A stretch of 64,000 nt of DNA from the NCBI GenBank assembly GCA_040954595.2, contig CM082584.2, positions 12,306,875 through 12,370,874 on the forward strand, given 5' to 3'. The DNA is from Balanoglossus misakiensis (lineage: Eukaryota > Animalia > Hemichordata). Of this stretch, positions 53,439 to 64,000 are shown piece by piece (position 1 is the first letter of the stretch; each line of letters opens with the position of its first letter). The position numbers and the translations under genes are program-made. The notes under the pieces are model-generated. The model saw nothing but the letters and a program-made list of their open reading frames with translations, was not told where the DNA came from and did no database searches.

Positions 53439-53565
<127 letters not shown>

Positions 53566-58833: not shown

Positions 58834-59362
58834 GTTGTTCACTCATCCGAATGTTATAATTTTTAGGTTTGAGTTGACACTCAAAATAAATCAAAACAAT
58901 TCCAAAAAAAGTTGAAGTTGAGGAGTGCGTTTATTTTTTATTTGGTTTTCATTTGTAAAGAAAATTAATTGAGCCAAACAAGTATGTACTGAGAGAGACA
59001 GAGAGACAGGTACATGGACAGAGTGAAACATGGGCATAGGTGGACTTTGCTATATTTAGTCACAGTGACACAATTTCTTGCTTTTCTAAATAACAAGTCC
59101 TAGTACCTCAGCAACGACAGACAATCCTTCCAAAGGAGGGCGCTTTATCATCATAAACGCGAACGAAAGTTCACAAACTTTTTCATGTTAGGTGGCGATA
59201 GTCATGATTTTGCATCAAAGAATGTTTGCTGGCTTATTAACATGCCGCAGCGCCCACACACGACTGAATCTAATTTCAGTCCGGAGAAATCACTGCTAGA
59301 ACTAAAGTAGGGTGGATAAGAGATGACACGGGGAAGTTGCGTTTTAAAAGTGAACACAGACC

Positions 59363-59368
59363 TTTATT
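59363..59368 (-). terminator. Candidate polyadenylation signal (AATAAA) for the peptide-precursor gene; alternatives at 58930-58942
   Basis: Minus-strand AATAAA about 530 nt after the stop codon; motif evidence only. Confidence 0.4.
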
Positions 59369-59897: not shown

Positions 59898-60118
59898 TCA
59901 AATTTCCGCGTCAAAATTAGGAAGAATCTTGGCGTCTTCGGACATCAGATGTTGCAGGACGTCTGTGCGCATGCCCATGTCTTCGAGCTGAGCACAGCCA
60001 TCCAGGCATCTATCACTGAGGTTCTTACAGCTGGACAAGCAAACCGATTGGCCACCCTTTTCGTCGCACGAAGCTGCACATTCTTCGACGTCGCCAGTGC
60101 AAAGAAGTGTGTAGCAAT
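59898..60118 (-). CDS. Last coding exon, 73 aa, with 8-Cys domain C-x4-C-x6-C-x3-C-x8-C-x3-C-x6-C-x3-C and an acidic tail
   Basis: tctctctcaatctgtctcttag|ATTGCTAC...; the phase-1 frame gives DCYTLLCTGDVEECAASCDEKGGQSVCLSSCKNLSDRCLDGCAQLEDMGMRTDVLQHLMSEDAKILPNFDAEI-TGA. Confidence 0.87.
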
Positions 60119-63100
60119 CTAAGAGACAGATTGAGAGAGAGAGAGATCAATTTATATGTCATATACACAGGTTTTGTCGAGATGATGAAAACGTGGCTTT
60201 TAATGTCAACTTTAAATGAAACAAACATATGGAAATTATTCATCACCGTTCCACTTTCACTCGGCACAGAGTGACATCATACCACTTACCTAGAATAACC
60301 CCTGACCGTATTAGAGTTGTCCTGATGACTTCATCAGCTATAGGTGCGAAGGAAAAAATAAACGAAAGAATTAACAATTATAAATCCACCGCAATTAAAT
60401 ATTGAGACAGCAAAATAGCACTCTTGATTAACTTGAAAACTCAAACTGACAAAAATGTTGTGCAGTTTGTCCATCATCACTCAACTGAACAGCGCCGCCA
60501 TACATGTATCTTTAAAGGCATCATTACCTACGAGAATCCAGTTAATGTTCACTTGGGTGGCCACGCGGAAAAAAAGTGTGCCACCCTATGGTCATTAGAA
60601 ACATAGACGCATTGCCTATAATTAATGGAGTTTACCACTAGCTAGTGTGTCATAGAATCTAACACTTCACAGAATCACGTGACTGTATCTAACACCACCA
60701 AGACTTGACGCCATATAACACAGAAAGGAAAGAAAAAAGATTGGTCTTACTTAGAGCCCGTACCCTTGTCGGCATCTTTCTTCTCTACCCAGAACACTGC
60801 AATAGAAGACAACACAATGTAAACATCAGAATCCGTGTTTTTATTCAACTGATCAGATTAGTTATATGGGGGCGCCACACTGGCCTATATTGCCGATTAG
60901 GCATGTGTCATTTTATATCTGATCTCAAGTATTTCTTTGTCTCGAAGATGGATTTAAGTGTTTGTTCACTGTCATTCAAAGTAAATGGCACATTCAAAAT
61001 CTCAGTTATGAGGTAGGAGCTGTTCATGATTCCCTGTCCTATTTTTCAACGAATAGCCCTAGTGGTTTGAAATATAGTTGAGATATTACCTCTTTTATCC
61101 TTGTCATCTAGAAAGAAGAAAGAGAATAATGGATGAGTTCGAATTCTATTTCTTTCGTTTCCAGGCAAATCTCATGACATGCTATCAATATTTCCTTTAT
61201 CGGGCAGATGATTAACTGCTCTTTGACAAGTCTTATCCAACCTGTTTGCTTTTTGAATGTACATCATAATGAAGATTTACTGTATTTTTTTTAGATCTTC
61301 CTTTGGTGAAATTCATCAATTGCTTTGGTAAATGTTAGTGTTTCCGATTAACATGCTCTCTACGGGGCTGATACATGACAGCAGCGACAAAGCGTTTTCA
61401 ATAGAGTTCACAGAATGAATACAGTGGGGAGATAAATGATAAAATATGATGTTTGCTTAAACATCGTGGGCATCGTTAAAGACACTCAATATAATTTTTA
61501 TGGGTGCAGTTAAGTTGTAAAGCATAAATGGTGTTGCATAAATGAAATGGAAATTGAGGATTAGAGTAAGTGTTGTCTCACGAGACACCACATTTCATAT
61601 TAATCAGCTTTCTAGGAGAAACAAGATTATTATAATTTAAAGACACCTCCAAGAATGTAACTCAGACAACTTACCATCAGAGGCTTTTTTCTGCACCCAG
61701 AATACTTGAATTGGAAAAGAATTCAAAAATGTAGTTTAATTATGGGCATTATGGAGAAAGTAGGCTCAGTCTGTAATGAGCATTAATTTAAAACATCACC
61801 CATACCCTTGTGATTTCTGTTGTTATTCTAAAAAAAATTAAATTACTTAGTTTCGAGTTGAATCTCACAAAATTGAAGTTCATTATAGAGAATATGGTCA
61901 TTCAAATTCGTGGATTTGCCTGGAAATATTTTCTTTCGATATGATGTAATTAAGCCTAACTCCTAAATCATTGATGTTTGTCGTACCAAACTAGGTCGTC
62001 CAAACCATGCGAACACAGAACTAATTAGAAACTACCTGGGCGTAAACCCCGAACTGAATAACGGTATTAAATTATTAGATATGCAATTACAGAGTAATTA
62101 TTGTTCAATTTTAACATGTAAATTGTCCAACGCGGCCGAATATTATTTTAGCTTTGCAGAAGTGTTGGTCAAGTACATGAATAATGAACTACGTACCCCT
62201 TTTATCTTGGTCGCCTGAAATCAAGAAGAGCATTTAGTTATATTTGTGTAGAGAACGTGAGCGTGAGAGGATAGTTTGTACGGGTTAATGGAAACGAAAA
62301 TTTGATACACTGTAATTTAAATATTAGTAAATGAATGAATACTTTCATATTTTGATGGTAAAATTCTCTTACCTGTCGCGCTGGCATCTTTTTTGTCAAC
62401 CCAGAAAACTGCAATACGAAAGATAGAAAAACATTACTGTGGACTTTCTTTGGACCTACGCCTGTGGGACTTTCGTGTTTACACCCACACATCACTATGA
62501 GACAAATTCTAAACTGGTAATTTCTATCATCAGAAACTATTTAAAACTTACCTCTCTTGTCTTTGTCATCTGAAGATATTGATTATGTGTGGGAGAAAAA
62601 AAGAACAATGAGTGAATTTGGATTGTGAAATTAAATATGTGTAGAATTGATAATACCTTTACGTCTTAGTTTCTAGAATATGTGGACAGCTCATTGGTAT
62701 AAAAGATCATGCATTCATTCATTTATTCATTCATTCATTCATTAATCGGAGGGACTCTGGTATTTAAAATAAAACAACATACCTGCTTTCGCGTCTTTCT
62801 TGTCGACCCAGAAAACTGCCGATGAACAAAAACAAGGGCGATTAATAGTAATGCATCATTAATAGTTAAATATGTCTTCTCTATCACTCGCATAAAATCA
62901 CCCCACATGGCAATTTCTTTAGTTTGTTTTTATGTTTTATTGAATATAAAATAGTCAAATTAATATATAATTAACTAGAATGTCACCCTTACCTCTTTTC
63001 GCCGCATCTGATGCAAAACAAAACAAAGATAAGTAAAAAGATATTTATTAATTCATTCATACAGTTTGATATTCGTAGCATTAAATACATGGGGTTAAGC

Positions 63101-63863
63101 CTTATATGGTAAAATTCCAGGGGGTAACTTCCCTAGAAACACATCGAGATAATAAAACAACTCACCCAAATCCCCGTAGAGACCATTGTCTTTCTTTTCA
63201 ACCCAAAACACTGAAACGATTAACAGAGAGAAATGTGAAAACTTGTTGCCAGTTTACATATCATGAATGAAACAATTATCAAAATGAACATAGAGTAAAT
63301 TCACACAAAGTGTGAAGATTTGAAAAACATTCAACAAAGTTTGTTGTTCTGGTAGTATATGCTGGTAGATAGATTTCAAGTTGGTGGCATTTACAAGTGA
63401 TTTCTATGTAACACATACCTCTTTTGTCTAAATCTTCAGCTGGTGCTATGGACCGAATAAAAGAACAGAGAGACATCATGTAAATACCAATTCAAATAAA
63501 AGCGCATTTTTGATAGGCAAGGCTTGTGAATATATAGGTACGCGGATATGATACATGCATGTAAATACATAAAATATGTAGTTCTAGTAGACGTACCATT
63601 TTTCTTGTCCACCCAAAATACTGGAGAAGAAAATGAAAGGCAAGTTGAGTAAAGTAACAGTCATCGATTCATGGCTTTTTATGTACGGAGAAATACTATG
63701 GGATTTTTTCTGAAAGGGCGCCACCATCAGGCCATGTTGCCACGAAGCTTGCATATATAGATAGATTATCCACTGAAATATTTTACATAGTCTTAAGACG
63801 ACAGCAATCTGTTTTAAAAACTTAGATCCGGACAAGTCTTACCTCTCTTTTCGTCGGCATTTT
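59898..63863 (-). CDS. Partial (5'-truncated) 14-exon gene for a repetitive prohormone/neuropeptide-like precursor: six KR-VFWV[D/E/Q]-KK units plus a C-terminal 8-Cys domain. Exons in transcript order: 63843-63863, 63597-63620, 63419-63445, 63166-63210, 62993-63007, 62783-62815, 62552-62569, 62373-62408, 62197-62214, 61675-61704, 61090-61107, 60764-60796, 60290-60337, 59898-60118
   Basis: Every internal exon is bounded by AG/GT on the minus strand, is a multiple of 3 long and is phase 1-1. Joined, they give an open 587-nt frame ending in TGA (59898-59900). The peptide motif repeats with synonymous codon variation and has dibasic flanks and acidic spacers. The function is inferred. Confidence 0.9.
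60290..60337 (-). CDS. Exon (48 nt), linker ADEVIRTTLIRSGVIL
   Basis: ttttttccttcgcacctatag|CTGATG...ATTCTAG|gtaagt; strong splice sites, phase 1-1, keeps the frame into the Cys exon. Confidence 0.8.
60764..60796 (-). CDS. Microexon (33 nt), peptide VFWVEKKDADK
   Basis: cttctattgcag|TGTTCTGGGTAGAGAAGAAAGATGCCGACAAGG|gtacgg; a competing donor lies 13 nt downstream. Confidence 0.85.
61090..61107 (-). CDS. Microexon (18 nt), spacer DDKDKR
   Basis: ttcttctttctag|ATGACAAGGATAAAAGAG|gtaat; same peptide as 62552-62569 with three synonymous differences. Confidence 0.88.
61675..61704 (-). CDS. Microexon (30 nt), peptide VFWVQKKASD
   Basis: cttttccaattcaag|TATTCTGGGTGCAGAAAAAAGCCTCTGATG|gtaagt; acceptor is AAG rather than YAG. 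Confidence 0.85.
62197..62214 (-). CDS. Microexon (18 nt), spacer GDQDKR
   Basis: ctcttcttgatttcag|GCGACCAAGATAAAAGGG|gtacgt. Confidence 0.85.
62373..62408 (-). CDS. Microexon (36 nt), peptide VFWVDKKDASAT
   Basis: tctttcgtattgcag|TTTTCTGGGTTGACAAAAAAGATGCCAGCGCGACAG|gtaag. Confidence 0.9.
62552..62569 (-). CDS. Microexon (18 nt), spacer DDKDKR
   Basis: atatcttcag|ATGACAAAGACAAGAGAG|gtaagt. Confidence 0.88.
62712..62743. repeat. (CATT)n microsatellite within an intron
   Basis: cattcattcatttattcattcattcattcatt. Confidence 0.85.
62783..62815 (-). CDS. Microexon (33 nt), peptide VFWVDKKDAKA
   Basis: tttttgttcatcggcag|TTTTCTGGGTCGACAAGAAAGACGCGAAAGCAG|gtatgt. Confidence 0.9.
62993..63007 (-). 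CDS. Microexon (15 nt), spacer DAAKR
   Basis: gttttgttttgcatcag|ATGCGGCGAAAAGAG|gtaag. Confidence 0.85.
63166..63210 (-). CDS. Microexon (45 nt), peptide VFWVEKKDNGLYGDL
   Basis: cgtttcag|TGTTTTGGGTTGAAAAGAAAGACAATGGTCTCTACGGGGATTTGG|gtgagt. Confidence 0.9.
63419..63445 (-). CDS. Microexon (27 nt), spacer APAEDLDKR
   Basis: ttttattcggtccatag|CACCAGCTGAAGATTTAGACAAAAGAG|gtatgt; an internal CAG could give a 21-nt in-frame variant. Confidence 0.85.
63597..63620 (-). CDS. Microexon (24 nt), peptide VFWVDKKN
   Basis: ttttcttctccag|TATTTTGGGTGGACAAGAAAAATG|gtacgt. Confidence 0.9.
63843..63863 (-). CDS. Microexon (21 nt), spacer (E)NADEKR
   Basis: tttatttgtag|AAAATGCCGACGAAAAGAGAG|gtaag. Confidence 0.85.
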
Positions 63864-64000
63864 CTACAAATAAATGAAAAAACAAGCGCGGATTGAGAAT
63901 CAATGCAAAAAGGTGACTCCTTATTTCTGTTATGAGTCAAGTTCTTTTTTATCTAGGACGTGTTATCAACAAAATAAGTTAAATGTCATATATAAGCTGA

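Follow-up and report, generated by a model that had tools for sequence, protein, structure and literature searches.

An acorn-worm gene built of small predicted exons encodes repeated VFWV[D/E/Q] peptides and is very likely an orthologue of echinoderm NP18

The closest described counterparts of the gene reported here are the NP18 precursors of echinoderms. The gene lies on the minus strand of a 64,000-nucleotide stretch of Balanoglossus misakiensis (GCA_040954595.2, contig CM082584.2, positions 12,306,875 to 12,370,874), hereafter the window. Published work is cited throughout from the passages and supplements that were searched. The brittle star precursor Ovnp18 (GenBank MF155258) has a signal peptide, LFWVD in four copies and a tail that bears cysteines, and was classed as uncharacterised (PMC5627052). 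The same paper reports single-copy NP18 orthologues with 9 cysteines in starfish and 8 each in sea urchin and sea cucumber, predicts LFWVD as the mature peptide, and gives KR-LFWVD-KK repeats throughout brittle stars in its supplements. Starfish Arnp18 (KT601737; PMC4772807) has one KR-LFWVD-KK and core cysteines spaced 4-6-3-6-3-6-3, and sea cucumber Ajnp18 (MF422081; PMC6586643) has one KR-LFWID-KK and cysteines spaced 4-6-3-8-3-6-3, both spacings by hand count. In 2019, NP18 was placed among the peptides found only in echinoderms, without similarity to peptides of other phyla (PMC6586643). The crinoid 'PCNP18' follows a separate numbering.

The minus strand from 63863 to 59898 contains 14 exons, located by eye and by script, which were joined by coordinates into an open frame of 195 residues that no stop interrupts. 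Each of the 13 introns has GT-AG ends, with a YAG acceptor in 12 and AAG in one; they range from 143 to 567 bases and all lie in phase 1, between the first and second bases of a codon. The small exons, 13 in number, measure 15–48 bases, always a multiple of three, and they alternate between a spacer exon with a terminal KR and an exon carrying the peptide, KK and a short tail. A first-pass annotation, made from the DNA letters, had proposed these 14 small AG/GT-bounded exons, and all of them were present in an open frame. It had also counted three VFWVD, two VFWVE and one VFWVQ, each flanked by KR and KK, and a script gave the same counts. No Gly stands ahead of a basic pair in the joined product, in agreement with its view that the peptides would not be amidated. 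The codon variants that it listed, and read as a sign of purifying selection, were correct. In 135 pairwise codon comparisons over the nine-codon core, synonymous differences numbered 55; the 11 non-synonymous ones were confined to the D/E/Q position, and second codon positions did not differ at all. Six-frame translation of the window contained the pattern FWV.KK six times, whereas 100 base shuffles averaged 0.02 occurrences and never exceeded 1.

A protein search with the last exon gave one match, in Ptychodera flava (E 7.7e-19), and a search with that protein gave two more, in Glandiceps talaboti and Saccoglossus kowalevskii. The three RefSeq models (XP_070563221.1, LOC144436064 and LOC102807013, respectively) are all named 'uncharacterized protein', and we found no tie between them and NP18 in the literature searched. 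The window protein is identical to the Ptychodera protein at 129 of 173 aligned positions (75%), to the Glandiceps protein at 105 of 187 and to the Saccoglossus protein at 94 of 165, values that suggest an acorn worm nearer to Ptychodera than to the other two. The relatives share the peptide, the cleavage pairs, the layout and the cysteine frame, and 28 residues separate the first residue of the last peptide from the first Cys in all four hemichordate proteins, whereas the copy number differs, with 5 in Ptychodera, 7 in Glandiceps and 9 in Saccoglossus. The most hydrophobic stretch of the three orthologues lies at residues 6–17 (KD11 2.66–3.21, compared with 1.75 or less after residue 45), so their N-termini appear signal-peptide-like as judged by hydrophobicity. 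We infer from these orthologues that a signal peptide is encoded upstream, in an exon beyond the window. The 5' end of the gene lies past base 64000, and six copies are therefore a minimum.

The same RefSeq models suggest that the window gene is spliced as drawn. Where the window has intron 10, two Ptychodera isoforms are set apart by a single Ala, and a third isoform diverges precisely at the exon 12 donor; these differences fall on two junctions of the window gene and thus back them indirectly. The diverging isoform, X4, stops just past the last peptide and has no cysteine hairpin, and reading through the corresponding donor in the window leads to a stop after five codons. The isoforms of both Glandiceps and Ptychodera show single-Ala spacer differences of the kind that tandem splice acceptors would produce; the acceptors of the window have no tandem sites. 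Chance assembly of the exons, or a dead copy, has next to no probability. The excess of motif matches, 13 canonical introns in the same phase, the absence of stops, the almost exclusively synonymous changes, and a RefSeq protein that is colinear and 75% identical all argue against it. The locus is an intact-looking, real gene.

Comparison with echinoderms placed this gene in a known family. An [L/V]FW[V/I][D/E] peptide between KR and KK without an amidating Gly, as in NP18, is found in the window, where one of the six copies ends in Q. Ovnp18 likewise combines several non-amidated FWVD pentapeptides between KR and KK with a cysteine-bearing C-terminus, but its first residue is Leu rather than Val, and its four copies are identical LFWVD, whereas the window has at least six D/E/Q variants. 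Brittle stars differ further by keeping four of the eight core cysteines and by three-residue spacers in most repeats, compared with eight cysteines in the window. Ajnp18 and Arnp18 share with the window the KR-LFW[I/V]D-KK arrangement and eight core cysteines in the frame 4-6-3-n-3-6-3, where n is 8 in Ajnp18 and the window and 6 in Arnp18, but both have a single peptide copy and Arnp18 has a ninth cysteine. In Ajnp18, 28 residues lie between the first peptide residue and the first Cys by hand count, the same as in the hemichordate proteins.

The gene structure is also shared. The scaffold rows of Li et al. give the coding exons of Ajnp18 as 1–67, 68–118, 119–151, 152–199 and 200–366; another scaffold row gives 152–195 through an imperfect alignment, in which the genomic span is still 48 bases. 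By hand count, phase-1 introns of Ajnp18 interrupt codon 40, which encodes the first peptide residue, codon 51, and codon 67, which encodes the Asp ahead of the first Cys. Exons 12–14 of the window therefore compare directly with Ajnp18: the same 33- and 48-base exons are found, and the last three intron positions and phases are equal. The peptide, the cleavage pairs, the cysteine frame and the intron positions together make orthology with echinoderm NP18 very likely, and on these features we regard it as close to certain. The first-pass annotation had described a candidate new neuropeptide system. The multi-copy, non-amidated precursor stands, backed by orthologues with 5, 7 and 9 copies and a hydrophobic N-terminus and by sea urchin expression in neurons, but the novelty does not, because the family has already been described as NP18 in sea urchin, starfish, brittle stars and sea cucumber. 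Somatostatin (for its FW motif), achatin (for its acidic end) and eclosion hormone were candidates considered earlier and dropped after the NP18 match.

The last exon encodes an eight-cysteine domain, spaced 4-6-3-8-3-6-3, that the first-pass annotation had not mentioned. No basic pair follows the last KK, so this tail would be released whole. A structure model of the tail from four sequences placed helices at 2–40 and 45–68 (mean predicted local distance difference test score 80, predicted template modelling score 0.55), and the tail is thus predicted to be a two-helix hairpin. The eight cysteines are invariant across the four hemichordate sequences. When they were paired in nested fashion, the index sums were 40, 41, 41 and 41, and brittle stars keep Cys only at the spacings of C1, C4, C5 and C8 by hand count; both fit a ladder of internal disulfides, and four nested disulfides (C1-C8, C2-C7, C3-C6 and C4-C5) likely close the modelled hairpin. 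The tail may serve in packaging or act as a signal in its own right.

Searches for relatives of the tail gave little. Pfam returned nothing above its cut-off for the last exon and the three orthologues; weak matches to Defensin_big (E 0.57) and Vps36 (E 0.005) were short and sub-threshold and were rejected. No neurophysin match was obtained for the same sequences at E up to 10. The tail had no sequence match to solved structures, and the ESM Atlas gave no usable match for two sequences, one of them the Saccoglossus orthologue. The fold search of the tail model reached a best E of 3.8 in Foldseek and a top Z of 8.7 in VIA-align (root-mean-square deviation 2.4, 64 aligned), all to generic helical hairpins. 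Vanabin2 (E 4.8) and the anopheline anti-platelet protein (E 5.4; Z 6.9) were not accepted as relatives.

Repeat-peptide precursors are processed by prohormone convertase cleavage and carboxypeptidase E trimming, and the usual target of a short neuropeptide is one of the G-protein-coupled receptors (GPCRs). Convertases favour KR over KK as a cleavage site. We consider it probable that the window carries the 3' part of an acorn-worm NP18 orthologue, the spliced product of which is secreted, likely neuronal, and likely cut at KR and KK into at least six non-amidated VFWV[D/E/Q] pentapeptides acting on a receptor. As in the orthologues, a signal peptide would direct the precursor into secretory vesicles. 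A prohormone convertase would cut after KR and KK, carboxypeptidase E would trim the basic residues, and the free-acid pentapeptides (calculated MH+ 665.33 for VFWVD, 679.35 for VFWVE and 678.36 for VFWVQ) would be released onto a GPCR. Saccoglossus expresses the prohormone convertase PC2 in neural domains (PMC10508912).

The exon 4 spacer (63166–63210, minus strand), between KK and KR, is the only spacer with a conserved non-acidic core, GL[Y/H]GD, which is found in the window, Ptychodera and Glandiceps and is absent from Saccoglossus. This spacer could be a second small product.

Several points weigh against this reading of the gene. The window gene is known from its DNA, and the signal-peptide exon would lie outside the window. 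The echinoderm comparisons are hand counts on published sequences and exon rows, not alignments. The protein searches returned hemichordates only (one of 7 candidates, 3 of 360, 3 of 1094 and one in the HMMER library) and did not return echinoderm NP18; as they missed a family known from papers, they say nothing on chordates or protostomes. The first base of the first-Val codon is the final base of the preceding exon, and the exon-final base is G in 13 of 13 exons, so the constancy of this Val may owe part to splice-site preference. The tail model draws on the four sequences mentioned, with the 0.55 template score. We found no report of an NP18 receptor, function or mass-spectrometric peptide detection in the literature passages searched, which did not cover the figure marking detection. 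Two further points, the pair that follows the peptide and the published view of the active product, each lead to a different reading of the NP18 gene.

The cleavage pairs were counted in 27 copies from four precursors, namely the window and one isoform per hemichordate relative, with five other isoforms left out. KR precedes all 27 copies, KK follows 26, RK follows one, KR follows none, and no copy has an amidating Gly. A downstream pair that is never KR raises the possibility that cleavage at KK is not straightforward, and longer KK-containing peptides are possible. If KK were uncut or only partly cut, the products would be VFWVxKK peptides with a variable acidic tail and the lysines in the active end. 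KK also follows the brittle star, starfish and sea cucumber copies in the sequences examined, the starfish paper marked the KR site only (PMC4772807), and a single exon carries the peptide and KK together with the beginning of the tail. However, neither the length nor the sequence of the tails is constant, whether within a species or between species, with spacers of 6–15 residues among the hemichordate precursors and three residues in most brittle star repeats, and one copy is followed by RK. PMC5627052 predicts the bare LFWVD, and its supplements show KK after repeated peptides in other brittle star precursors. We consider this reading unlikely.

For starfish and sea cucumber, the published proposal is that the long cysteine-rich polypeptide is active rather than the pentapeptide (PMC4772807, PMC6586643). 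Applied to the window, the disulfide-bonded hairpin would be the main hormone and the pentapeptides would be secondary. The invariant cysteines of the four hemichordates agree with this, as does their spacing, which is kept in sea cucumber and, save for a shorter loop, in starfish. However, the pentapeptide is far better conserved between the phyla than the hairpin, and its copies were multiplied to between five and nine in acorn worms and to four in Ophionotus. Half of the cysteines were lost in brittle stars, and the Ptychodera X4 model has no hairpin. A main role for the hairpin is improbable.

The site of expression was judged from the sea urchin. Sp-Np18 mRNA occurs in cells at the mouth and in the larval apical organ, where serotonergic sensory neurons contain it, and in sensory neurons it is found together with two other neuropeptide genes (PMC6209648). 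The acorn-worm gene would likewise be neuronal. A secreted, non-neural product, for example of gland or mucus or one serving as a pheromone or in defence, would agree with the lack of expression data for any hemichordate orthologue in the literature searched, but it has little in its favour beside the sea urchin neurons and a layout that is that of a convertase substrate, and we give it a very low probability.

Other cysteine-bearing precursors were also compared. The NG peptide and vasopressin/oxytocin precursors with neurophysin are analogous in plan, as a cysteine-rich domain stands C-terminal to a short peptide in one precursor. The domain of the window differs in its eight cysteines, its all-helical prediction and the lack of a neurophysin Pfam match, and no homology is claimed. 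The echinoderm eclosion-hormone-like precursors NP11 and NP15 are marked by a single peptide with six conserved cysteines (PMC5627052) and by the lack of short repeats; the window protein has eight cysteines in another spacing, plus six repeats, and was not assigned to that group.

The exon layout suggests how the copies arose. The six pairs of spacer and peptide exons in the window are phase-symmetric and sea cucumber has one such pair, so duplication of this two-exon module (a spacer-KR exon and a peptide-KK exon) likely raised the copy number. The introns between repeat units showed no similarity above shuffles (best similarity 32, shuffled maxima 25–31); with this similarity gone, the duplications are old and their order is not recoverable. 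The coordinates are listed in Table 1.

Table 1. Exons and polyadenylation signal of the window gene
Feature	Position	Strand	Content
Exon 1, 21 nt	63843..63863	-	Acidic spacer, terminal KR; first exon within the window
Exon 2, 24 nt	63597..63620	-	VFWVD, KK
Exon 3, 27 nt	63419..63445	-	Spacer, terminal KR
Exon 4, 45 nt	63166..63210	-	VFWVE, KK, spacer with a match in Ptychodera and Glandiceps
Exon 5, 15 nt	62993..63007	-	Spacer, terminal KR
Exon 6, 33 nt	62783..62815	-	VFWVD, KK
Exon 7, 18 nt	62552..62569	-	Acidic spacer, terminal KR
Exon 8, 36 nt	62373..62408	-	VFWVD, KK
Exon 9, 18 nt	62197..62214	-	Acidic spacer, terminal KR
Exon 10, 30 nt	61675..61704	-	VFWVQ, KK; Q copy second-last in Ptychodera flava too
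Exon 11, 18 nt	61090..61107	-	Acidic spacer, terminal KR; one-Ala difference between Ptychodera isoforms at the junction
Exon 12, 33 nt	60764..60796	-	Last peptide VFWVE, KK; length and phase equal to the Ajnp18 peptide exon; Ptychodera isoform diverges at the donor
Exon 13, 48 nt	60290..60337	-	Linker and start of first predicted helix; length and phase equal to the matching Ajnp18 exon
Exon 14 coding part, 221 nt including stop	59898..60118	-	Eight cysteines 4-6-3-8-3-6-3, predicted helical hairpin, variable acidic tail
Candidate polyadenylation signal AATAAA, nearest after the stop	59363..59368	-	Two further AATAAA candidates start at 58942 and 58935

An extra exon near 61806–61827 was rejected by eye, as it contains a stop or breaks the frame. 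A (TCAT)9 repeat lies within intron 6 at 62707–62743, and a (TC)61 microsatellite was found at 53439–53560. No neighbouring gene was recognised downstream in window positions 1–59800: the 150 longest of the 367 stop-free frames (at least 55 residues) of the window had no Pfam match at E 0.001, a search that genes of small exons would escape.

We found no report of a hemichordate NP18 in the literature searched, although an earlier listing is possible, for example in figure 5f of PMC5627052 (the legend includes Saccoglossus for the whole figure), two 2013 surveys, the original sea urchin description or bioRxiv supplements. The papers listed under the NP18 names were all on echinoderms. NP18 was unmentioned in the searched passages of the Saccoglossus nervous-system paper PMC10508912, of PMC13554239, PMC6188537 and PMC9793003, and of two preprints, and the searched supplements of PMC10508912, PMC6188537 and PMC9793003 contained no FWV-type strings. 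Acorn worms thus likely provide the first report of NP18 in a second phylum for this known orphan family. The novelty lies in the phylum and in the anatomy of the gene, not in the kind of system.

A wider proposal is possible but doubtful: NP18 would be an overlooked signalling system as old as the ancestor that acorn worms share with echinoderms, in which a non-amidated [L/V]FW[V/I][D/E/Q] ligand from apical-organ sensory neurons acts on an orphan GPCR, perhaps with chordate or protostome relatives. In this proposal, the four-disulfide hairpin would be a neurophysin-like carrier or a second hormone of a fold new to neuropeptide precursors, and the gene would record the duplication of a symmetric two-exon module.

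In summary, the acorn-worm members push NP18 back to the ambulacrarian ancestor. The papers disagree on the active part of the precursor, and the repeats point to the five-residue peptide as the ligand and the unit under selection. The hemichordate neuropeptide list is incomplete and some neuron types have no known peptide, according to a 2026 preprint; LOC102807013 is open to immediate look-up in Saccoglossus single-cell data, and the pentapeptides can be synthesised cheaply as ligands with which to screen receptors in Saccoglossus or Ptychodera. The rise of peptide copy number has been called unclear (PMC5627052), and the contrast between a one-module gene in sea cucumber and a six-module gene in the window bears on how it comes about.

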